Of a stretch of DNA of 64,000 nucleotides, positions 25,792-38,470 are shown piece by piece. A model generated the notes under the pieces. That model did no database searches and was not told the origin of the DNA. It saw only the letters and a program-made list of their open reading frames with translations. This stretch comes from an uncultured Candidatus Saccharibacteria bacterium. Lineage in GTDB: Bacteria > Patescibacteriota > Minisyncoccia > Phycocordibacterales > JACOZG01. A program made the position numbers and the translations under genes. Location: positions 269 to 64,268 of the forward strand of contig CAZQDR010000003.1 in the NCBI GenBank assembly GCA_964591715.1, read 5' to 3'. Each line of letters opens with the position of its first letter. The stretch's first letter is position 1.

Positions 25792-26376
25792 TTAGAGGTG
25801 ACTGTGGTGTAAGGCTTGATTAATAATTTCGAGCGCCAGCTGCTGGCGCTCGGCCGACAACTCGAGCGGCGCCATGTCCCAGTCGTTGAAAGCAAAAATG
25901 ACCTCGAGCTCCGGGCGCTCCTCTACATAACCCAAACGGCGCAAAAGCCGCGCCACCCAAATTAGCTCAAAATTGACTAGCTCCGCTTCGGTCAAAAAAG
26001 GTCGTTCCAAAAAATGGGCTCCGCTTTTAAACTCCTCAAAAAAATCGGGCTGGGCCACTTCACCGGTTACTAAGCGCAAAATCAGTTGGGCAACCCGGGC
26101 CAGGAGCTGCAGGCGCACCGCTTCGCGGTGCGCCGCCAATTCCCCCGCCTCAACATGCACCACGCGCCAGACCTCCCGGCCTCGCACCAACGAGACCTCC
26201 GGCCAACTAAATAATTGCAGATTATAACGGAGCTTAGACTTTAATTCCCGCAAACCTTGGGCGGTAGCGTTAACCAAACCGTGATCACGCGTATACAAAG
26301 TCAGCGTCCGGGTTGCTTCGCTCGCCTCTCGGACACCCAACACGACCGCTGGCGTGGTGTAAATTTGATGCGACAT
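25792..26376 (-). CDS. recO: DNA repair protein RecO
   Basis: 194 aa; N-terminal OB fold pattern typical of RecO. Confidence 0.6.
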   Translation of the reverse strand: MSHQIYTTPAVVLGVREASEATRTLTLYTRDHGLVNATAQGLRELKSKLRYNLQLFSWPEVSLVRGREVWRVVHVEAGELAAHREAVRLQLLARVAQLILRLVTGEVAQPDFFEEFKSGAHFLERPFLTEAELVNFELIWVARLLRRLGYVEERPELEVIFAFNDWDMAPLELSAERQQLALEIINQALHHSHL

Positions 26377-29300
26377 TATTCGTAACGAAAAGCGCTCGCG
26401 CAGGTCGCGACTTTTATTTCGTGCTCATACTTCTCGGCCAAGCTCTGTTTGGCAATCGGTATAACCACTTCCGCTTGTTCTCCTGCCTTCAAGCCGCTTT
26501 CTTTACGCCAATCCTGAATTTCGCGAATCAAATCGCGCAGTTCCCCCTCCTCCTTAAGTTCAGGAGTGATAGTCAAATCAAGTTCTACCACTGCCGACAA
26601 GTTAGGATCAAAGATTACCGCTTTAACATTTACTTCGTCTTGGATAAGTTGAGCCAGTTCAGCGGAGAGCGGAGCACTTTTGGCTTTAAGTTCTTTTAGT
26701 GGTTGGCGAACTTTAATCGCGGCTTTGGCTCGCGCCTCTAAGCCACCCGAGACGAGCTGGCGCACGAGTTGCATCGCGGTAATAATTTCTTCGTCGCTCT
26801 TGTCGGCCTCGGGCCAATGCTCTAAGTGCACGCTCTCCGCGCCACCTTTCAATTTCAAATAAATTTCCTCAGCAACAAAGGGCGTAAATGGGGCCATCAA
26901 GCACGACAACACCAACAGCGTCCGGCGGAGCGTATCCATCACTGCCTGCGCCTCAGCGGGATCAGTGGGCTTAAAGCGATCGCGCGACCGGCGTAAATAC
27001 CAAGTTGATAAATCGTCCACAAATTCGTCGATGGGCCGCAAAGCCCGATCAAGCTCATAAGACTCCATCGCCGCTGTTACTAATCCAATCACTTCGTTAA
27101 GCCGGTCGTTAATCCAACGATCTAAAATATGAGTACTAGCGGCATCGCTCGGAACGTGGGCGCCGGCGTACAGTTCATAAAACGCCACCACGTTCCGCAG
27201 ACGGCCCAGCACCCGATTACTGGTCTCGCGCAAACCACGCTCCGAAAAATTAAATTCTTCAGCATGTACCGCTGGTGATGAGAGCAAGTAAAAACGCAAC
27301 GCGTCCGCGCCAAAAGTATCAATCGTGGGTTCCAGATCGGGATAATTTTTTAGACGCTTAGACATCTTTTGGCCATCCTCGGCTAAAATCAAACCATTCA
27401 CTACGACACGCTTAAAGGGGGGGCGATTAAAAAGTCCCAGCGAGAGCACCAGCAAAACATAAAACCAGCCGCGAGTTTGATCCAAACCTTCGGCAATAAA
27501 GTCCGCGGGAAAATGCTTTTCAAACTCTTCCTTGTTGGCAAACGGATAATGTAACTGGCCGTAAGGCATGGAACCGGACTCAAACCACACATCAAAAACA
27601 TCGGGTACGCGCGCCATCTCGGCACCACACTCGCAACGGAGTTTAACCTCATCAATATACGGCCGGTGAAAGTCGAGCTCGTAGGCTTGATTGTGCGGGA
27701 GAGCGACAAAGGGCAGTGGTCGCGATTCGGCGGTTTTTAAAAAGTAACGATCCTCACTCTGCGCGGCTTCGGCCTCGTGATCATTAAAGCCTTGGGCTCC
27801 CACCATCAATAACCAGCCCACCGCTTCGTGAGTGATCAGTAAAATATTTTTACCCGCATAACGAGCGTCAATCTCATACAGCGACTGGAGCGCCCGCGCC
27901 TTCACCTCATGAAAGTTTTCCCCCGCTGGTGGCGCCTTAGTAAAGCGCTCGGCTCGACCACTGAAAAAAGCGTGGAACTTAGCCACCGACCCCCCCTCCA
28001 ATTCGCCAAAGCCCACCTCGCGCAGGCGCTCATCCAAAACCACTTGATCGGCCGGTACTCCTAAAGCCTCCGCCATGAGCGCCGCCGTCTCTCGTGTTCG
28101 CAAAACTGGCGAAGTAATGATCAGATCAATTTTTTCCTTAGCCAAAGTTTTACCGGTGGCTTCTACTTGCTCACGGCCATTTTCCGTTAAATGATTGTCG
28201 CCATCGAGCGCCGAGGTAACAATGCTTTGTACGTTCGACTGGGCCTCGCCGTGACGCATGACCCAATAATTATTTTTTGGCTGCCGCTTAGCAGTGAGCT
28301 CCTCGAGTGAGCCAATCACTTCAATTTTTTTGCAGCTTTCGCAACGCCAGACCGGTAGCGGCGCCCCCCAGTAACGCGAACGCGATACTGCCCAATCGCG
28401 CGCCCCCTCCAGCCATTTACCAAAGCGACCGTCTTTAATATATTCCGGCACCCAAGTTACGCCCTCGTTTGCCTTCAAGAGTGCCTCCTTCATCGTACTT
28501 ACAGCAATAAACCAGGATGATGACGCGTAGTTTAAGAGAGGTGTATCGCAACGCCAACAATGAGGGTAGGGGTGAGTAATTTTTTCCTTCGCAAAAAAGG
28601 TGCCATGCTCCTGCAAATATTTTAAGACTGCAATGTCAGCCGAGAGACGCTCCTTCTCATCTTCACTCTTGGGTTTAACTGGCAGACCGGCAAAATCTTT
28701 GACCGCCGCTTTAAAGTGACCGCTAGTATCAACGTGCTGGATAAAAGGTAAATTTTTAGCCTGACCCAACTTTAAGTCGTCCTCGCCGAATGCCGGTGCA
28801 ATATGGACAATGCCGGTACCATCCTCGGTTGTCACAAAATCCGCGCCGTAAACCTGCCAACCGTTCTCCTTATTTTTCAGCGTCGTATCATTCTGATAAT
28901 AATCAAAAACTGGTTGATACTTTTTACCCACCAATTTTTGTCCGGTAAATGTTTCTTCAATGGTAAAATTATCGGTTAAAACTTTTGTGGCCAGCGCCTC
29001 CGCCACAATCAACTTAATTCCGCCCTTTTCGACTCGAACATAGTTCAGTTCGGGATTAACCGCCAGCGCCACATTACCTGGCAGCGTCCAAGGTGTCGTG
29101 GTCCAGGCCAACAAGTAAGTCCCCGGCTCATCAACCAGTTCAAATTTTACCGTCACCGACAAATCCGTGACATCTTTGTAACCCTGATTAACCTCAAAGT
29201 TAGCCAGCGTTGTCTCACAGCGCGGGCACAAATGCATAGACTTGTAACCTTCGTAGGCCAAGCCCTTGTCGTAGAGTTGTTTAAAAATCCACCACACCGT

Positions 29301-29771
29301 CTCGGTGTAACTGGAGTCCATCGTTTTATAATCGTTCTCCATGTCCACAAAACGGCCAATGCGGGGAATAATCCTTTTCCACTCGTCAGCATAACGGAGC
29401 ACGCTCTCTCGTGCCTTTTGGTTAAAGACGTCAATCCCCAACGCTTCAATATCCTTTTTGGTTTTTAGACCCAACTCTTTCTCGATCAGGTTCTCGATCG
29501 GCAAGCCGTGACAATCCCAACCCCAGCGACGCGCCACTCTAAAGCCGCGCATGGTTTGATAGCGTGGAATAGCGTCTTTAATCGAGGTCGGCAGCAAGTG
29601 ACCAAAGTGAGGCAAACCGGTCGCAAAGGGCGGCCCATCATAAAAAACGTACTCGCCTTTGGGCGCATCTTTAGCCAGGGACTTGGCGAAAATTTGGTGA
29701 TCTTGCCAGAACTTAAGGATCTCTTCCTCGCGTTTGGCAACATCGGATTTTTGGGGCAGAGCTTCGGCCAT
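26376..29771 (-). CDS. ileS: isoleucyl-tRNA synthetase carrying an inserted histidine-phosphatase (PGM-family) domain
   Basis: 1131 aa; HIGH (PHFGHLL), WDCHGLP, GWFY, KMSKR; insertion aa ~500-700 with RHGEAQSN ... TSPVLRTRETA ... LITHEAVGW motifs. Confidence 0.9.
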   Translation of the reverse strand: MAEALPQKSDVAKREEEILKFWQDHQIFAKSLAKDAPKGEYVFYDGPPFATGLPHFGHLLPTSIKDAIPRYQTMRGFRVARRWGWDCHGLPIENLIEKELGLKTKKDIEALGIDVFNQKARESVLRYADEWKRIIPRIGRFVDMENDYKTMDSSYTETVWWIFKQLYDKGLAYEGYKSMHLCPRCETTLANFEVNQGYKDVTDLSVTVKFELVDEPGTYLLAWTTTPWTLPGNVALAVNPELNYVRVEKGGIKLIVAEALATKVLTDNFTIEETFTGQKLVGKKYQPVFDYYQNDTTLKNKENGWQVYGADFVTTEDGTGIVHIAPAFGEDDLKLGQAKNLPFIQHVDTSGHFKAAVKDFAGLPVKPKSEDEKERLSADIAVLKYLQEHGTFFAKEKITHPYPHCWRCDTPLLNYASSSWFIAVSTMKEALLKANEGVTWVPEYIKDGRFGKWLEGARDWAVSRSRYWGAPLPVWRCESCKKIEVIGSLEELTAKRQPKNNYWVMRHGEAQSNVQSIVTSALDGDNHLTENGREQVEATGKTLAKEKIDLIITSPVLRTRETAALMAEALGVPADQVVLDERLREVGFGELEGGSVAKFHAFFSGRAERFTKAPPAGENFHEVKARALQSLYEIDARYAGKNILLITHEAVGWLLMVGAQGFNDHEAEAAQSEDRYFLKTAESRPLPFVALPHNQAYELDFHRPYIDEVKLRCECGAEMARVPDVFDVWFESGSMPYGQLHYPFANKEEFEKHFPADFIAEGLDQTRGWFYVLLVLSLGLFNRPPFKRVVVNGLILAEDGQKMSKRLKNYPDLEPTIDTFGADALRFYLLSSPAVHAEEFNFSERGLRETSNRVLGRLRNVVAFYELYAGAHVPSDAASTHILDRWINDRLNEVIGLVTAAMESYELDRALRPIDEFVDDLSTWYLRRSRDRFKPTDPAEAQAVMDTLRRTLLVLSCLMAPFTPFVAEEIYLKLKGGAESVHLEHWPEADKSDEEIITAMQLVRQLVSGGLEARAKAAIKVRQPLKELKAKSAPLSAELAQLIQDEVNVKAVIFDPNLSAVVELDLTITPELKEEGELRDLIREIQDWRKESGLKAGEQAEVVIPIAKQSLAEKYEHEIKVATCASAFRYE

Positions 29772-31701: not shown

Positions 31702-32292
31702 TCAGCGGGAGAATACCCGACTGCCGTCGCGCCACTCACGCGGACCCTCGACCGCACGGGCGTTCACGCCCCAACCGGCCTTAAGCCAGTCCACACCGAC
31801 CAAGAGCAGAACTCCTTCAGCGTCGCGAACGTAAAAGATGTTCACGTAACCATTGTTAAGGAGCGCGCCACTCTCGCCTTTCGCCTGCCGACTGATCAGC
31901 TGAACAATGGCGGAAAGCGTGGTCTCCACCTTCTCCTCTCCACCCAACTCGGCGATGATTCGTAGATCGCGAGACTGCTTCCTGAGTCGGTGGGAGCGGA
32001 GCACAGTCTCCGGCTGCGGTTCCTCCACCTTGTTGCCGAACCAAGTCTTGAAGTTCTTACCAAGCCAGGCGATACCACTCTGGCCGACGACCAACTCCTG
32101 TTCGGCAACGAACTTGGCCGTGGTCGCGACGATGGTGATAGTAGTGAGGAAGTCGAGAATGCTGTCCACGATTTCCTCAATCACCACCTTTGCCTTTCCG
32201 GCGAGCAGGCTCTTGGCGTTCTCCTCACCAATAATGTTGATGAGCGCTTCCACCTGACCGAACGACCAACCGCTATACTTGTAACTAGCCAT
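31702..32292 (-). CDS. hypothetical protein in GC-rich insert
   Basis: ORF to 32397; start MASYKYS (32292); own promoter; region GC ~58-60%. Confidence 0.5.
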   Translation of the reverse strand: MASYKYSGWSFGQVEALINIIGEENAKSLLAGKAKVVIEEIVDSILDFLTTITIVATTAKFVAEQELVVGQSGIAWLGKNFKTWFGNKVEEPQPETVLRSHRLRKQSRDLRIIAELGGEEKVETTLSAIVQLISRQAKGESGALLNNGYVNIFYVRDAEGVLLLVGVDWLKAGWGVNARAVEGPREWRDGSRVFSR

Positions 32293-32388
32293 AGCACACA
32301 AACCTTTCCGGCTAAAAGCCGAGAAACTGCCTCTACCCGAGGTGGGGGCTGTATTCACTCGAATCCAGCGTTTCAAAGAACTAATATT

Positions 32389-32417
32389 AGTATACACCTA
32401 ATTACCCTATTTGTCAA
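32389..32417 (-). promoter_or_regulatory. consensus sigma70 promoter TTGACA-17-TATACT
   Basis: seen directly on minus strand. Confidence 0.55.
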
Positions 32418-32499: not shown

Positions 32500-32997
32500 T
32501 TAGCGGCGGGCGATGTCGACGGAGAAGAAGCGCACTTGGCGACTCTTCAACCAGCCGTCGTAATCGGCCCAAGTCAGGCCAACATTCCAGCGTCGGGAAT
32601 ACTTAAAGAGAACGACGCATCGAGGCTGCCGGCGGCCGTCCAGGATATTGAACAGATTCAACCCGCCATCGGCAATCAGGGCGTCGCCACCCTGGGACGA
32701 TTGATCAATCAACCAAGCCAGGTCGGCCAAGGTCGTATGGGCTCGAGCCCACTCGGCGAGAGAGACCTCCATCTCGGCCCGATTGGACCAATTTGAAGAT
32801 TGATCCCACCTCAACTGCGCCGCCGCCTGGGCCGCCTCCACCTTGTCGAGGAAGCTGTTCCTAAAGTGGGGTGATAGAGCCGCTGGGTCGAACCGCTCGG
32901 CGGTGAAGAACTTGGCGGCCACAAACCGTGGCAGGGCTGGCCGAACAATGGCTGCTGGGCTCTGAATTACCGTCGCACTACTCGTTACCATCATTTC
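32500..32997 (-). CDS. hypothetical protein in GC-rich insert
   Basis: ORF to 33201 overlaps dut; start MMVTSS at 32997 preceded by GGAGGAGG SD. Confidence 0.55.
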   Translation of the reverse strand, partial: EMMVTSSATVIQSPAAIVRPALPRFVAAKFFTAERFDPAALSPHFRNSFLDKVEAAQAAAQLRWDQSSNWSNRAEMEVSLAEWARAHTTLADLAWLIDQSSQGGDALIADGGLNLFNILDGRRQPRCVVLFKYSRRWNVGLTWADYDGWLKSRQVRFFSVDIARR

Positions 32998-33073
32998 CTC
33001 CTCCCGGGGAAAATATAACAAACAACAGATACTCCACCCTTGTTTATACCTCTTCTTTAACCTATTGTCAACT

Positions 33074-33502
33074 CTACTTGCGGCCCGTGCTACCAAAAGC
33101 ACTGGTGCCCCGAGAAGAATCGGCCAGTTCAGCGGCTTCTTCCAACTCGGCGACCGCGACGGGATAAATGATAAGTTGAGCCACCTTATCCCCCACTTCA
33201 ACGGTATATGCCTTGTCGCTCAAATTAACCAAGTGAACATTATACTCGCCGCGATAACCAGCATCGAACACGCCACCCATGGTATGTAATCCTGCTTTAG
33301 AGATACTCCCCTTGTCTTTAATAATCGCCGCATAACCAGCTGGGAACTCTAAGGCAAAACCCAAATGGAATCGCGCGTGATCACCCGGCAGAATAGTTTG
33401 TTCTTCTAGAGCATACAAATCTAATCCGGCGTCTCCAGGATGACCATAGGTTGGCTGCTTTGCTTCCGGCTTTAATTTTTTAAACTTTATGGACAGGGAC
33501 AT
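33074..33502 (-). CDS. dut: dUTP diphosphatase
   Basis: 142 aa; trimeric dUTPase motifs incl. GVFDAGYRGE. Confidence 0.9.
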   Translation of the reverse strand: MSLSIKFKKLKPEAKQPTYGHPGDAGLDLYALEEQTILPGDHARFHLGFALEFPAGYAAIIKDKGSISKAGLHTMGGVFDAGYRGEYNVHLVNLSDKAYTVEVGDKVAQLIIYPVAVAELEEAAELADSSRGTSAFGSTGRK

Positions 33503-34187
33503 GTTTCTTCACTAATTTATAAACTTGCTCATGGACCGCTTCGGGCGTTTGGCAAACCATTCCGGCACAACACTCAATGCGGCGCCACTTTTTATCTTTC
33601 TCGGCTAAGGCCAGCGCGCTCTGGCGCGAATTTTTAAGATGGAGCAGATTATCCTCGGCAACATCTTTGCGGCCCTTTAAATATTTCTTACGGCGCTTGG
33701 CGATCTTTTTCTCAAGCCACAGCTTACTCACCTCAAATGGCACGTCTAAATAAATCACCAAATCTGGTTTGGGAATTTTAAAAACGCCGTACTCCATTTT
33801 ATCAAGCCAAGTTAAAAACTCCTGACGCTTTTTAGGATCAGCGATTTTGCCACCCTGGTGGATTTGGTTAGCACTGACATAACGATCAGCGACAACAACA
33901 AAGCCAGCCGCGAGCCACTCTTTAATTTTGGCACTAGTCTCAAAACGGTCCGCGGCATAGAGCACTGAGGCTAGGCGTGGATCAGCCTGAATAAAATCAC
34001 CATGGAGTCCGGAAAGATATTCGCCAATTAAAGCGCCAAAAAAATTATCATAATAACGAGGGAAGTCGATCGTTTTAACCGGCACCTTCTCTTTTTTCAA
34101 CCGGTCAGCTAAAAGTTTAGTTTGCGTCGCCTTGCCTGAACCATCAATCCCGTCAATCACCACTAACCGTCCTGCCGTTTTAGTCAT
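33480..34187 (-). CDS. tmk: thymidylate kinase with Cys-rich C-terminal tail
   Basis: VIDGIDGSGKATQ P-loop, DRF motif. Confidence 0.85.
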   Translation of the reverse strand: MTKTAGRLVVIDGIDGSGKATQTKLLADRLKKEKVPVKTIDFPRYYDNFFGALIGEYLSGLHGDFIQADPRLASVLYAADRFETSAKIKEWLAAGFVVVADRYVSANQIHQGGKIADPKKRQEFLTWLDKMEYGVFKIPKPDLVIYLDVPFEVSKLWLEKKIAKRRKKYLKGRKDVAEDNLLHLKNSRQSALALAEKDKKWRRIECCAGMVCQTPEAVHEQVYKLVKKHVPVHKV

Positions 34188-35445
34188 TTTGTTTTTTAAT
34201 TTTTCTTAAAATTTGATCAATCTTGCCGGCCAATATTTTTACCTGTTTTTCTTTGGCACCGCGGGTAGTCTCGGCCGCTAAACCAATCCGGATTCCCGAC
34301 GGGTCAACGGGCGGCCGAGTATCAAAAGGAATCGCATTTTTGTTCACAATAATCCCCGCCTGCTCTAGCGCCTCACTCGCTGCCTGACCACCAACACCGA
34401 CGCCGTTTAACCAAGTGTCCAGCAAGATCAAGTGGGTGTCGGTGCCATCACTGACTAGCCGCCAGCCCAGCTTCTTTAACTCCATTGCTAGCGTTTTGGT
34501 GTTCTTGATAATTTGAGTGGCGTACTTCTTAAACGCCGGCGTGGCTGCCTCGGCAAGCGCCACCGCCACGCCGGCAATTTGGTTAACATGCGGCCCCCCT
34601 TGGATACCCGGGAAAACCGCTTTATCTATTAAGTCAGAAATAAGCTTCGGTTCGGGCGCAGACTTTCTTCCATCACGGTCAACGAGGGAAATGATTCCAG
34701 AAAGCCCGCGCCCAACCTGCGCCGGTACCCGCCGGCTGAAGATTAATGCCGCTCTCGGACCACGCAAAGTTTTGTGGGTGGTAGTGGTCACGACGTCAGC
34801 GTATGGGAAAGGGCTCGGATGGACGCCCGCGGCCACCAGACCAGCAATGTGCGACATGTCTACCATCAGGATTGCTCCGCAGGCGTCGGCAATCTCGCGA
34901 AACTTTTTGAAATTAATCTGACGCGGATAAGCCGTAAAACCGGCGACAATAATATTTGGTTTTTCTTTAACTGCCAAAACTTTAACCGCTTCGTAATCTA
35001 ACTGTTCACTATCACGGTCAACGGTAAACGGGATTTGCTGCCAGGCTTTGCCAGTTAGGGAGACTTTGTGACCGTGCGTTAAATGACCGCCATGCGCTAG
35101 CGACATGCCCATAATTTTCCCCCCGATTGGGACGAGCGCAGTGTACACCGCCAAGTTGGCCGGTGAACCAGAAAGCGGCTGAACATTCACGGCCCACTTC
35201 TTTGGGCTAAGTTTAAAAAGTTTCAGCGCTCGTTCTTGGCAAAGTCGCTCTACCTGATCAATGATTTTATTGCCGCCATAATAACGCGCGCCCGGATAAC
35301 CCTCGGCATACTTATTATTTAATTCCGAACCCAGCGCCGCCAAAACATCGGCGGAAACATAGTTCTCTGACGCAATTAAATTAACTACCTTCTGTTGTCG
35401 CTCTCGCTCGGCCTTGATCAATCGTTCAATCGGTTTATCTTTCAT
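34180..35445 (-). CDS. glyA: serine hydroxymethyltransferase
   Basis: 421 aa; TTTHKTLRGPR PLP-lysine motif. Confidence 0.95.
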   Translation of the reverse strand: MKDKPIERLIKAERERQQKVVNLIASENYVSADVLAALGSELNNKYAEGYPGARYYGGNKIIDQVERLCQERALKLFKLSPKKWAVNVQPLSGSPANLAVYTALVPIGGKIMGMSLAHGGHLTHGHKVSLTGKAWQQIPFTVDRDSEQLDYEAVKVLAVKEKPNIIVAGFTAYPRQINFKKFREIADACGAILMVDMSHIAGLVAAGVHPSPFPYADVVTTTTHKTLRGPRAALIFSRRVPAQVGRGLSGIISLVDRDGRKSAPEPKLISDLIDKAVFPGIQGGPHVNQIAGVAVALAEAATPAFKKYATQIIKNTKTLAMELKKLGWRLVSDGTDTHLILLDTWLNGVGVGGQAASEALEQAGIIVNKNAIPFDTRPPVDPSGIRIGLAAETTRGAKEKQVKILAGKIDQILRKIKKQND

Positions 35446-35454
35446 GTTTAAGAT

Positions 35455-35943
35455 TTATTTTTTACGACTGCCGTGGAATCTGAGATGGGCATCATCCGTA
35501 ACATACAGCGTTTTTATCCCCGCCTCCAGCATCCGCTCCCAGCAAGGTTGGCAGGCCCACCAGTGACCCCACAAATAGACTTCCGCCCCCGCGGTGACTT
35601 CCCCATTTTTTATTGCATCCGCCACGGCTCGTGATTCTGAGTGAAGCTTGTAATTAGAGCACCCCGGACAAAGCCAATACTTTTGGCCAGTTTTAATTTT
35701 TAACTTGTGCCGGACACACCAACCCTTGGTGTGAAGATCAGCCAAAAAAGCATTCTTTAGTGCTGATTGATTGGCTCCCCGACCGATAATTTTACCGCCC
35801 TCAACAACCACCGCCCCACTTGGCTGATTACGTTCCGTGGCCGACTGAAAACGCATTTTCTTGGCTTCAGCCATAAATTGGTCCGTCTCAGGCACCAACT
35901 TAATCTCGCAACCAGCAGGCAAATAAGGGTAGATAATCGTCAT
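35455..35943 (-). CDS. dCMP deaminase (ComEB/T4 cd-like zinc deaminase)
   Basis: HAE...PCxxC zinc motifs (HAESRAV, CQPCWERM). Confidence 0.85.
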   Translation of the reverse strand: MTIIYPYLPAGCEIKLVPETDQFMAEAKKMRFQSATERNQPSGAVVVEGGKIIGRGANQSALKNAFLADLHTKGWCVRHKLKIKTGQKYWLCPGCSNYKLHSESRAVADAIKNGEVTAGAEVYLWGHWWACQPCWERMLEAGIKTLYVTDDAHLRFHGSRKK

Positions 35944-35982: not shown

Positions 35983-36819
35983 ATGACCGCCTTTGACCGA
36001 ATCTACCAGAATCTGTTAAGGCAAATCATGACCGAGGGCATTGCGGAAATGAGCGAGCGCACCGGCCACGAAACCCGGGCCATCCCCGGCCTCCACTTTA
36101 CGACCGACCTCCAAAAAGACGGCTTCCCCCTACTTACCCTGCGCAAAATACCAATTCGGGTCTTCGTGGCCGAGCAAATTTGGTTTCTCCTTGGCTCGCG
36201 CAAACCAGCCGACTTTCTGCGGGAGTACACTAAAATTTGGGATGACTTTACCAACCCAGGCGATGTCGTCACGGTCGCTTACGGTTACCGTTGGCGCAAA
36301 CATTTTGGCCGCGATCAAATCGCCCTGTTGATTGAACTTTTAACCAAGGAGCCAAGTTCGCGCCACGGCGTCGTAATTGCTTGGGATCCAGCCCAGGATG
36401 GCTTGTCGCTGTTTAAAAAGAAAAACGTCCCCTGTCCCTACACCTTTACCGTTAATATTATTGGCGGACACCTCCATCTCCACAACATGATTCGCTCTAA
36501 CGACGTCATGCTCGGCATGCCTCACGACGTGGCGGGCTTTGCTTTGCTCCAGTGCATTTTAGCCGAACGATTAGGAGTAAAGCCGGGCATTTACTCGCAC
36601 TCTATTTCTAACGCTCATGTTTACGACATTCACTACTCAGCCGCGGAAGAAATAATTAGCCGCCACAACGATCATCCTAATGTGACACTCGAGATTCCCG
36701 CCAACACCTTTGCCCGGATCGAGAACCGCGACCCGGCGATAGCCAAAGAACTAATCGATCAACTGACTAACCAGTACACACCAATGGATGCCATTAAAGG
36801 TTTACAAATTGTCCTCTAA
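35983..36819 (+). CDS. ThyA-family pyrimidine C5 (hydroxy)methylase with dCMP-type active-site signature (not a canonical thymidylate synthase)
   Basis: 278 aa aligns to E. coli ThyA without gaps over PCH..LPFN: C146 kept (C151), H147->P, RSCD->RSND, N177->D182; stop overlaps folA start. Confidence 0.75.
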   Translation: MTAFDRIYQNLLRQIMTEGIAEMSERTGHETRAIPGLHFTTDLQKDGFPLLTLRKIPIRVFVAEQIWFLLGSRKPADFLREYTKIWDDFTNPGDVVTVAYGYRWRKHFGRDQIALLIELLTKEPSSRHGVVIAWDPAQDGLSLFKKKNVPCPYTFTVNIIGGHLHLHNMIRSNDVMLGMPHDVAGFALLQCILAERLGVKPGIYSHSISNAHVYDIHYSAAEEIISRHNDHPNVTLEIPANTFARIENRDPAIAKELIDQLTNQYTPMDAIKGLQIVL

Positions 36820-37316
36820 TGATTCCAGCGTTTATTATTGCCAGCGTGACCGCCGACGGCCTGATTGCCCGTGATGCTAGTCACGCGGCCACCTGGTCCA
36901 GCCAAGCTGATAAAAAGTTTTTTGTGACCCGAACCAAAGCCGCTGGTGCGATCATTATGGGCGCTAAAACTTTTGCCACTATTGGCCGACCCCTCCCAGA
37001 ACGCTTAAATGTGGTTTACACCCATCAACCTTCACCTCACCCTGAAGTCTTGGCCACCGCTTTGCCGCCAGCGGAACTACTGGCGGAACTTGAGCGCCGG
37101 GGCATTAGGGAGGCGGCCATTTGCGGGGGCAGTTCAATTTATACGCTCTTTCTTAAGGCCGGCCTGGTCCAGAAAATTTATTTAACTGTTGAACCACGCC
37201 TCTTCGGCCAAGGCCTCTCGCTTTTTAATCAGGAACTGGACCTCACCCTCAAGCTTTTGTCGACTCAACAATTAGCCCCAGACGTCGTATTATTGGAGTA
37301 TCAAGTAATCACCTAA
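36819..37316 (+). CDS. folA: dihydrofolate reductase
   Basis: 165 aa; DHFR fold motifs (IASVTADGLIA, GGSSIY). Confidence 0.85.
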   Translation: MIPAFIIASVTADGLIARDASHAATWSSQADKKFFVTRTKAAGAIIMGAKTFATIGRPLPERLNVVYTHQPSPHPEVLATALPPAELLAELERRGIREAAICGGSSIYTLFLKAGLVQKIYLTVEPRLFGQGLSLFNQELDLTLKLLSTQQLAPDVVLLEYQVIT

Positions 37317-37318
37317 TC

Positions 37319-37960
37319 ATGGCTGTTATCACCAAAGAAGACATTATCGAACGAATCAAGGGAGGGAGCTTAAAGTTTGTCCCCAATCTCGACGTCTTCC
37401 AGCTTCAAAGCCACTCGGTTGACTTGCGGCTGGGCTTTACTTTTATGCTGCCCAAGATTTGGCATCTCACTACCCGCGGCCGCGAGTCACTCGACATCCT
37501 CCATTTTGATAAACGGACTCAAGAATATTTTGATATCGTAGAACTAGAGGAGGGTCAATACTTTGATCTCTTGCCTCAAGAATATATTTTGGTTTCCACC
37601 CTCGAGACTTTAACTGTCCCTAAAGATTTGATGGCTGTGCTTTATCCGCGCTCCTCGACCAATCGCAAAGGTTTGTCGCTCGACTTAACGGGCATTATTG
37701 ATTCGGGTTACGAAGGCCAGCTAAGCTTACCGATTCGCAATAATACTCGTTCGCAAACAGTGCGACTTTATCCGGGCGAGCGTCTCTGCCAAGTGGTTTT
37801 TGAAGAACTAACCCAAACAATTAACCCGCGCCAAAGTAAGTATCACCAGCGTGACATCATTGACGGCGTTCAGCGCGAAGCCGAAACGGAAGTTAAGTTG
37901 TTGTTAGCCGGAAAAATAAAAGAGTTAAAGCGTGACCACGCTGTCGAGGGCTTGATATAG
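37319..37960 (+). CDS. dCTP deaminase/dUTPase-superfamily protein lacking the Dcd catalytic Glu
   Basis: 213 aa; Dcd-like VDLRLG, PRSSTNRKGL (Ser/Arg kept) but E138 position = Pro138; dUTPase motif III Asp also replaced (IDSGYEG). Confidence 0.7.
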   Translation: MAVITKEDIIERIKGGSLKFVPNLDVFQLQSHSVDLRLGFTFMLPKIWHLTTRGRESLDILHFDKRTQEYFDIVELEEGQYFDLLPQEYILVSTLETLTVPKDLMAVLYPRSSTNRKGLSLDLTGIIDSGYEGQLSLPIRNNTRSQTVRLYPGERLCQVVFEELTQTINPRQSKYHQRDIIDGVQREAETEVKLLLAGKIKELKRDHAVEGLI

Positions 37961-38470
37961 CTCTTCCACCTCGCCATTGTTATTGATCACCACCGAAGCG
38001 GCGTCTTTAAGCGACCGGATTTGAATCTCGGTTTCCAGTTGCTGATCTTTTTGAAATTGCTCCCAAGTTTTGCCGTTATCATCTGGATTCTCACCGCGAA
38101 CTGATAAACGCTTAAATCGAACCTCCGGGTCAGCCTCAAGATAAATTAATTTAAATTGGGGTAACTTTTGGAGAGCCTTAATGTCAGGCAAGCGACGGAT
38201 ACCATCAATGACCACCAGATCAGTCTTGGCGCCCGCCGCGTCCTTGGCCACTATCTCGGAAAATAAATCTTCGCCGAAGGTCTGGCGCAAGGCCAGCGAC
38301 AGTGCCGACATGTTCTCTCGCGTCTCGGTTAGATACAAGCGAGCCATAACGTCGCGCAGTGGCGTAGAAAAGCGATACGACTCGGCGTTAAACTTTTTAG
38401 CTAAATATTTCGTACTGAACGTCTTTCCTGAAGCCATCTCCCCCGTCAAACCAATAATTAATTTAGCCAT
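37925..38470 (-). CDS. P-loop kinase, candidate deoxynucleoside-monophosphate kinase
   Basis: 181 aa; GLTGEMASGKT P-loop; VIDGIRR and C-terminal VINNNGEVEELY resemble my recollection of phage T4 gp1 dNMP kinase (unverified). Confidence 0.55.
   Translation of the reverse strand: MAKLIIGLTGEMASGKTFSTKYLAKKFNAESYRFSTPLRDVMARLYLTETRENMSALSLALRQTFGEDLFSEIVAKDAAGAKTDLVVIDGIRRLPDIKALQKLPQFKLIYLEADPEVRFKRLSVRGENPDDNGKTWEQFQKDQQLETEIQIRSLKDAASVVINNNGEVEELYQALDSVVTL

Follow-up and report, generated by a model that had tools for sequence, protein, structure and literature searches.

What does a protein of the dCTP deaminase (Dcd) family do once the residue needed for deamination is gone? This question is raised by a gene, here called DcdL, in a 64,000-nucleotide stretch of DNA from an uncultured Candidatus Saccharibacteria bacterium (assembly GCA_964591715.1, contig CAZQDR010000003.1, positions 269 to 64,268 of the forward strand; the whole stretch is referred to as the window), which is a bacterial chromosome segment encoding ArgRS, IleRS and RecO. 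The original prediction, made from the sequence alone, saw in DcdL a protein that binds triphosphates without deaminating them, for example a dCTPase or a regulatory protein. The analysis presented here indicates that the replacement of the catalytic Glu by Pro is a conserved trait of a patescibacterial family encoded beside a distinctive set of thymidylate genes, and it points to DcdL as a candidate (5-methyl-)dCTP diphosphatase.

37319..37960, forward strand: DcdL, 213 aa, from ATG to TAG; Asp128 is encoded at 37700-37702 and Pro138 at 37730-37732.

Its profile matches place DcdL unambiguously in the Dcd branch of the dUTPase superfamily. Pfam DCD (PF22769) matches it with 1.6e-32 and 113 bits, and dUTPase (PF00692) with 1.3e-14 and 54.6 bits. 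The NCBIfam model TIGR02274 (dCTP_deam) gives 109.4 bits, above its trusted cutoff of 92.8, which is why annotation pipelines name this family “dCTP deaminase”. Both the canonical dUTPase model TIGR00576 (45.9 bits, cutoff 102.55) and the archaeal dUTPase model NF002598 (45.8 bits, cutoff 130) stay below their thresholds, so that the profile assignment proposed with the original prediction resolves to DCD. The AlphaFold model confirms the Dcd fold (pLDDT 77 overall, below 50 for residues 171-187), the top Foldseek matches are Dcd and DCD:DUT structures (E about 1e-14), and the best sequence match among solved structures is the DCD:DUT of B. halodurans, 4xjc (63.5 bits, HMMER). Motifs I-IV of dUTPases are recognisable, including PRSSTNRKG (II), IIDSGYEG (III) and PGERLCQ (IV). 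Motif V (RGxxGFGS(S/T)G) was not found in DcdL, the C-terminus of which consists of the SKYHQ arm (SKYHQRD) followed by extra helical sequence.

Deamination by Dcd requires Glu138 (E145 in M. jannaschii), and it is because of this requirement that the E138A/D and E145A/Q variants were crystallised. In HMMER alignments with four solved Dcd and DCD:DUT sequences, Pro138 of DcdL (LSLPIRN) falls exactly on this catalytic Glu: the counterparts of SLPIRN are ITLELFN in 4xjc, ITLELS-N in M. tuberculosis 2qlp/2qxx and IVLAFYN in E. coli 1xs4, itself an E138A mutant. MAFFT and hmmalign return the same register with Pro138 at the Glu position. Ser112 and Arg116 of PRSSTNRKG, which are invariant, align with Ser111 and Arg115 of E. 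coli Dcd; the same pair is present in archaeal dUTPases and is therefore not diagnostic of deamination.

According to the same comparisons, the elements of dUTPase-type hydrolysis are all kept, in a form more dUTPase-like than in Dcd. The counterparts of Asp128 in the alignments are Asp128 of E. coli Dcd (IDPGW) and the ID in motif III of dUTPases (LIDSDY in E. coli Dut); the presence and invariance of this residue make phosphoester hydrolysis plausible. Motif II begins with PRSS, motif III carries the sugar-stacking Tyr in dUTPase-like fashion, and motif IV, GER(L/I/F)CQ, resembles GERIAQ of E. coli Dut, while E. coli Dcd has PGMLIGA. With respect to the DCD:DUT combination of residues, Asp128 and Gln158 are present in DcdL and the deaminating Glu is absent.

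To what extent this set of residues is a property of a family was addressed at three levels. A protein database contained 1377 relatives of DcdL at E <= 1e-5, and the best 120 of them, 68-96% identical and originating from Parcubacteria, Paceibacterota, Taylorbacteria and Liptonbacteria, were examined residue by residue; every one of these 120 has Pro138 and an unchanged PRSSTNRKG. A scan with one genome per species found a DcdL relative in 133 genomes, and the 80 loci kept from it show Pro138, Asp128 and PGER.CQ without exception (80/80 each) and YPRSSTNRKG in 79. Finally, an exhaustive HMMER search across 1.84 billion cluster representatives revealed a wider “Pro clade” at 33-58% identity with the signature YPRSS..R(R/K)G…TG(I/V)(I/V)D.GY.G.L..P(I/V).N, canonical Dcd (GRSS…G(F/W).G.ITLE..N) being seen only below about 91 bits. 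Throughout the wider Pro clade R111, R116, G125, D128, G133, P138, N141, G153, R155 and E191 are invariant; Arg140, conspicuous in the core family, is not. Such conservation implies that the Glu-to-Pro exchange is neither a chance event nor a sequencing error, and that we are dealing with a selected family, not with a defect; its degree excludes a pseudogene or an artefact. A viral origin of DcdL was also considered and dropped: GenBank phages yielded only archaeal-virus Dcd proteins, 27-36% identical to DcdL, and a scan of IMG/VR with core-family patterns found no member of the core family.

The Pro clade alignments contain no conserved acidic residue in or beside the strand of Pro138 that could stand in for the missing Glu. 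Glu132 of GYEG varies (E/D/S/K/Q/T/A), and the invariant Glu191 is located 17 residues past the phosphate-binding Lys174, beyond the C-terminus of Dcd, where the AlphaFold model places it in a helix after a low-confidence arm. A realignment that would restore a catalytic Glu nearby was thus sought and rejected, since the four PDB alignments, MAFFT and hmmalign all give Pro, and neither the variable Glu132 nor the too distant Glu191 qualifies. As far as alignments can tell, DcdL cannot deaminate by the known Dcd mechanism. The original prediction was therefore right about the replaced Glu in SLPIRN, about the retained equivalents of Ser111 and Arg115 and about the preservation of triphosphate-binding elements in a Glu-less protein of the Dcd family, but it was mistaken in reporting the motif III Asp as absent: this is Asp128 of IIDSGYEG, found in all 80 loci. 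The earlier reader appears to have sought the second, non-catalytic Asp of IDxDY, and also overlooked the large and strongly conserved cellular family, the canonical dut nearby and the thyA-folA operon around the gene.

The genomic surroundings suggest what such a protein may be used for. The following genes of the window accompany DcdL:

35983..36819, forward strand: ThyA-like enzyme, first gene of the operon; catalytic Cys151 is present, and Asp182 (codon 36526-36528) occupies the position of E. coli Asn177.
36819..37316, forward strand: dihydrofolate reductase (folA); its stop lies 2 nt before the ATG of DcdL.
37925..38470, reverse strand: dNMP-kinase-like P-loop kinase (PHROG139 “deoxynucleoside monophosphate kinase”, 1.3e-18; PRK08356-like).
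35455..35943, reverse strand: Zn-dependent deaminase of the cytidine/deoxycytidylate type, divergent from the thyA-like gene; HSE at aa 101 and CQPC at aa 131.
34180..35445, reverse strand: serine hydroxymethyltransferase GlyA, an assignment based on the translation and on a GlyA homolog conserved in 55 of the 80 loci; regenerates methylene-tetrahydrofolate.
33480..34187, reverse strand: thymidylate kinase (tmk).
33074..33502, reverse strand: canonical trimeric dUTPase (dut; PF00692, 3.8e-25) with five motifs, motif V being RGTSAFGSTG.

DcdL closes a tightly coupled operon, in which the thyA-like stop overlaps the folA start (TAATG). A canonical dcd, the search for which had been proposed with the original prediction, was not found among the six-frame open reading frames (ORFs) of the window when these were searched by phmmer with E. 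coli Dcd, E. coli Dut and DcdL; the canonical dut at 33074-33502 was found. The idea that DcdL is the sole dUTPase was rejected because of this dut, located about 4 kb away. In the dut product, Lys replaces the usual Arg of motifs II (DKGS) and IV (GDKVAQ), but motif V is intact. For ThyX, the window and the 80 loci gave only spurious motif matches in short ORFs, and no second thymidylate synthase (TS) or ThyX was detected within the window or within ±10 kb of the 80 loci. The Zn deaminase, of 162 aa, belongs to a family specific to the Candidate Phyla Radiation (CPR) with the motif GHWWAC.PCW and represents a candidate 5-methyl-dC nucleotide deaminase; PHROG gives no match for it, solved dCMP deaminases match it with only ~20 bits, and homologs in phages are essentially lacking. 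Neither this deaminase nor DcdL gave a defence-system match in PADLOC, and a defence role of DcdL was dropped on this account. The P-loop kinase gene is convergent with DcdL, the 3' ends overlapping by 36 nt, and its homologs occur beside DcdL elsewhere only in two loci (L080 and L085); the kinase could phosphorylate 5-methyl-dCMP.

The ThyA-like enzyme may prove more important than the Dcd-like gene. Position 177 sets the substrate of TS: Asn directs the enzyme to dUMP, while Asp directs it to dCMP, giving 5-methyl-dCMP (PMC8670742). In the window protein GMPHDVAGF aligns by HMMER with GLPFNIASY of E. coli, so that Asp182 takes the Asn177 position (hereafter Asp177), and Asp is found at this position in all 73 loci in which the site is covered. 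Comparison with 3481 phage records that have a TS homolog gave as best matches Xp12, PaMx74, Bosa, Elanor, DLP4, AXL_1, phiH1/H2 and the Rhodobacter phages RcRudolph and RcSimone-Hastad, all of them Xp12-like phages with 5-methylcytosine (5mC). The blastp scores are 170-194 bits against the TS of Xp12-like phages and 105 bits against E. coli ThyA, and the window enzyme shares with the Xp12-like TS the NVPCP motif, the AWDPAxDGL insertion and the HFGRDQ deletion. From these features we predict that the window ThyA-like protein is a dCMP C5-methyltransferase of the Xp12 type.

The likeness extends to the gene set. The Xp12 operon encodes a PRA-PH/MazG-type pyrophosphohydrolase (annotated as HAD hydrolase), TS, a “dCMP deaminase” and dihydrofolate reductase (DHFR), and that of RcRudolph encodes a MazG-like pyrophosphohydrolase, TS, deaminase and DHFR. 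As reported in a preprint (bioRxiv 10.1101/2024.12.05.627091), 5-methyl-dCMP is the product of the Xp12 TS homolog and of five among the seven Asp177 TS homologs taken from modified metavirome contigs. According to the same preprint, a deaminase encoded in cis on one such contig, mSCD-B5 (its linked TS has homologs in Xp12 and PaMx74), turns 5-methyl-dCTP into dTTP, which is proposed to make a dUMP-dependent TS dispensable, and PRA-PH co-localises with the phage module. By analogy, this suggests that the patescibacterial module comprises the same four functions as the Xp12 module, with DcdL in the pyrophosphohydrolase slot. Our literature search found no paper that ties Patescibacteria/CPR to Xp12-type chemistry, 5-methyl-dCMP or Asn177 variants, the published work on the module dealing with viromes only.

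The arrangement is repeated across the family. The order Deam|ThyA-DcdL-DHFR occurs in 42 of the 80 loci and Deam|ThyA-DHFR-DcdL in 21, the rest being mostly versions truncated by contig ends. The Zn deaminase accompanies DcdL in 72 loci and Tmk in 23. Of the 31 loci flanked by at least 8 kb on either side, 16 encode a canonical Dut within ±10 kb. Even divergent members of the Pro clade may be embedded in such a module: P0127 (39% identical to DcdL; L086) occurs as TS(Asp177)-DcdL-Deam, and P0125 (40% identical; L088) as TS(Asp177)-DHFR-DcdL, after which come an unknown ORF and Tmk. P0154 (L085:1-1416, JGI 3300009376) is a natural DcdL::Zn-deaminase fusion with a weak nucleoside-2-deoxyribosyltransferase-like tail; its gene is followed by a homolog of the window's P-loop kinase and by Tmk.

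Some further features of these loci deserve recording. Directly downstream of the divergent Pro-clade genes are two ORFs with no Pfam match, L088:8659-9696 (forward strand, 345 aa) and L087:8672-9340 (forward strand, 222 aa); in L087 a glutaredoxin precedes the Dcd-like gene and no TS is nearby. In three loci labelled Saccharimonadales (L059, L064 and L070), an ORF of ~800 aa with a thymidylate-kinase-like region replaces the short Tmk upstream of the deaminase.

Taking residues and context together, we propose that DcdL is a (5-methyl-)dCTP diphosphatase feeding the route dCMP → 5-methyl-dCMP → thymidine nucleotides, a proposal to which we give an even chance. DcdL would bind a 2'-deoxypyrimidine triphosphate with Mg without deaminating it, and water activated by Asp128 would attack the alpha-phosphate and cut the alpha-beta bond, releasing dNMP and pyrophosphate (PPi). 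The substrate would most likely be dCTP, possibly also 5-methyl-dCTP. Pro138 would remove the carboxylate and presumably reshape the wall near N3/C4/C5 of the base and make it more hydrophobic. The Asp177 ThyA-like enzyme would then convert dCMP into 5-methyl-dCMP at the expense of methylene-tetrahydrofolate, with DHFR and GlyA recycling the folate; the presence of DHFR in the operon implies that the ThyA-like reaction yields dihydrofolate, i.e., that it is a methylation and not a hydroxymethylation. The Zn deaminase would turn the 5-methyl-dC nucleotide into a thymidine nucleotide, which would pass to Tmk. It should act after methylation, because dUMP formed from dCMP is a dead end with an Asp177 TS; canonical Dut would only sanitise dUTP. 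What we infer in this scheme is that DcdL is catalytically active, which base it prefers, how the steps follow one another and whether the deaminase works on the mono- or the triphosphate. The part of the original prediction that named a dCTPase, as in cytosine-substituting phages, is now favoured by the context of an Asp177 ThyA-like enzyme and Xp12-type operons.

Several points weigh against this proposal. The base specificity cannot be read from the sequence, and Ser112/Arg116 are kept in archaeal dUTPases as well. Monofunctional E. coli Dcd is not a hydrolase although it possesses the motif III Asp, so that the motifs do not guarantee hydrolysis. The DcdL::deaminase fusion fits consecutive steps better than the non-consecutive order that we propose; 5-methyl-dCTP → 5-methyl-dCMP → dTMP, or dCTP → dCMP → dUMP, would be examples of such steps. 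In addition, divergent clade members in L087, L090 and L091 have no adjacent TS, and the CPR deaminase is related to the Xp12 deaminase only at the superfamily level.

If hydrolysis is accepted, the base may still be uracil. DcdL could be a second, Dcd-derived monofunctional dUTPase (dUTP → dUMP + PPi), similar to P45 of P. furiosus, that supplies dUMP to TS: its gene lies within a thymidylate operon, its motifs II-IV with the motif III Tyr are dUTPase-like, and the only characterised Glu-less proteins of the Dcd family (9ln0, 8y1w) are dUTPases. We consider this unlikely, since a five-motif Dut is encoded 4 kb away and at least half of the loci with full flanks have one next to the module, a redundancy unexpected in a genome of ~1 Mb. 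Moreover, Asp177 of the partner TS in 73/73 loci disfavours dUMP (PMC8670742), and DcdL, with only 45.8 bits to NF002598 (cutoff 130), is nearer to the bacterial DCD:DUT. Asp128 and the Arg155/Gln158 pair of GER.CQ, the residues of the chemistry, are invariant in more than 200 sequences and at 33-58% identity, and the phage analogues have a true hydrolase in the slot of DcdL; both facts speak against a role of DcdL as a non-catalytic dCTP/dTTP sensor that acts allosterically on the deaminase or the ThyA-like enzyme and replaces the allosteric site of classical dCMP deaminases. Such a sensor, which we regard as distinctly improbable, would account for the fusion in P0154, for the short CPR deaminase (162 aa) and for the family-specific C-terminal helical extension, the invariant Glu191 and Gly198 of which could mediate protein contacts; the Dcd fold is also able to bind dTTP in its active site (PDB 2j4q, 2qxx).

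The remaining alternative is that DcdL still deaminates by means of a relocated or different group. It might, for instance, form dTTP from 5-methyl-dCTP, as is described for cells infected with Xp12. The residues that work together with Glu138 in Dcd, Ser112 and Arg116, are indeed invariant, Pro138 might open space near C4/C5 of the base, and the C-terminal extension offers the invariant Glu191. This residue is, however, 17 positions past Lys174, beyond the end of Dcd, in a helix after a disordered arm, and neither the active-site strand nor the sequence adjoining it has a conserved acidic residue; the module already possesses a dedicated Zn deaminase (72/80 loci), and in E. coli Dcd the E138A exchange served to trap the substrate for structure determination (1xs4). 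A deaminating DcdL is thus hardly probable at all.

If the diphosphatase proposal is correct, a large Patescibacteria/CPR lineage may make thymidine nucleotides without a dUMP-dependent TS, by a route known only from phage Xp12, with DcdL as a Dcd-derived (5-methyl-)dCTP diphosphatase at its entry or sanitising step; we put this forward tentatively, as somewhat less than an even chance. Glu-less diphosphatases of the Dcd fold and the 5-methyl-dC route of phages were known already, while their combination as a conserved cellular core operon appears to be undescribed. Minimal host-dependent bacteria would thus have a new cellular way of carrying out an essential step that is a drug target, and this would raise the question of pool-derived 5mC in CPR DNA. 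An extreme version, in which 5-methyl-dCTP enters the replication pool and 5mC substantially replaces C in DNA, seems to us very improbable: the gp1-like dNMP kinase beside DcdL fits it, but the composition of the window (GC 48.9%, CpG observed/expected 1.12) gives no hint of 5mC-driven decay and does not suggest it.

There are also practical consequences. The NCBI and JGI pipelines give the name “dCTP deaminase” to more than 1300 proteins from no fewer than 133 species-level genomes. As these proteins cannot deaminate by the known mechanism, metabolic reconstructions of CPR bacteria contain a wrong step. The family would provide a second independent reversion of Dcd to a pure nucleotide diphosphatase (Glu to Pro, besides the archaeal Glu to Met) and inform on how the two chemistries are partitioned within one fold. 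The linked deaminase family could supply 5mC-selective deaminases like those used for methylome sequencing.

Other observations concern the rest of the window. A scan of it for tRNA genes found none. The class I aminoacyl-tRNA synthetase at 26376-29771 (reverse strand, 1131 aa; tRNA-synt_1, Anticodon_1, DUF5915), presumably IleRS, has a complete histidine-phosphatase domain (His_Phos_1) inserted at aa 503-667. Between ArgRS and dut there are two ORFs of ~230 aa with no Pfam match, 31702-32397 and 32500-33201, both on the reverse strand, the latter of which overlaps the dut ORF and may be spurious. The gene at 38519-40579 (reverse strand) encodes a secreted-looking protein of 686 aa with right-handed beta-helix (NosD-like) repeats and a C-terminal peptidoglycan-binding domain.

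Compared with the known systems, DcdL is closest to Dcd and DCD:DUT, with which it shares the N-terminal SVDLRLG, RSS..R, the motif III Asp, the C-terminal K-Y-x-Q arm and the lack of dUTPase motif V. It differs from them by Pro in place of the catalytic Glu (E138 in E. coli, E145 in M. jannaschii), by PRSS instead of GRSS in motif II and Tyr instead of Phe/Trp in motif III, by the extra C-terminal helix of ~30 aa and by its linkage to an Asp177 TS. Canonical Dut (PF00692) belongs to the same jelly-roll superfamily, while DcdL lacks its motif V and has N- and C-termini of the Dcd type.

Precedents for Glu-less Dcd proteins are known in archaea: P45 of P. furiosus (9ln0/9ln3) and the T. pacificus protein (8y1w, with dUMP) were deposited as “dCTP deaminase” and are dUTPases. 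Like DcdL, these P45-type proteins, which are pure nucleotide diphosphatases, combine the absence of Glu with RSS..R, the motif III Asp and GER..Q (GERFVQ in their motif IV). They have Met at the Glu position (GNLTLMLYN versus GQITLELFN of 4xjc) and not Pro, and Trp instead of Tyr; with 156 aa, they lack the N-terminal hairpin and the C-terminal helix. A P45-type protein is the dUTPase of its organism, whereas genomes with DcdL also carry canonical Dut. Since DcdL is closer to the bacterial DCD:DUT (63.5 bits) than to 9ln0 (41 bits), the Glu was lost independently in the two groups. The “dUTPase/dCTP deaminase” proteins of an archaeal rudivirus and of PhiF1 were rejected as precedents, because they keep the Glu (TIE/TLE). 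The archaeal P45-type proteins are the best mechanistic precedent for DcdL.

With respect to context, the nearest counterparts are the phage dCTP pyrophosphatases, i.e., gp56 of T4 and the PRA-PH/MazG-like proteins of Xp12, PaMx74 and RcRudolph. The PRA-PH/MazG-like proteins occupy the same operon slot beside a TS homolog, have the same partners (Asp177 TS, an enzyme of the dCMP deaminase family and DHFR) and are assigned the same proposed reaction, dCTP → dCMP + PPi. In structure, gp56 and the MazG-like proteins are all-alpha and unrelated to the beta jelly-roll of DcdL, so they are analogues and not homologues, and PRA-PH was seen only in the phage proteins. The phage enzymes are viral and also serve to exclude C from DNA, while DcdL is cellular.

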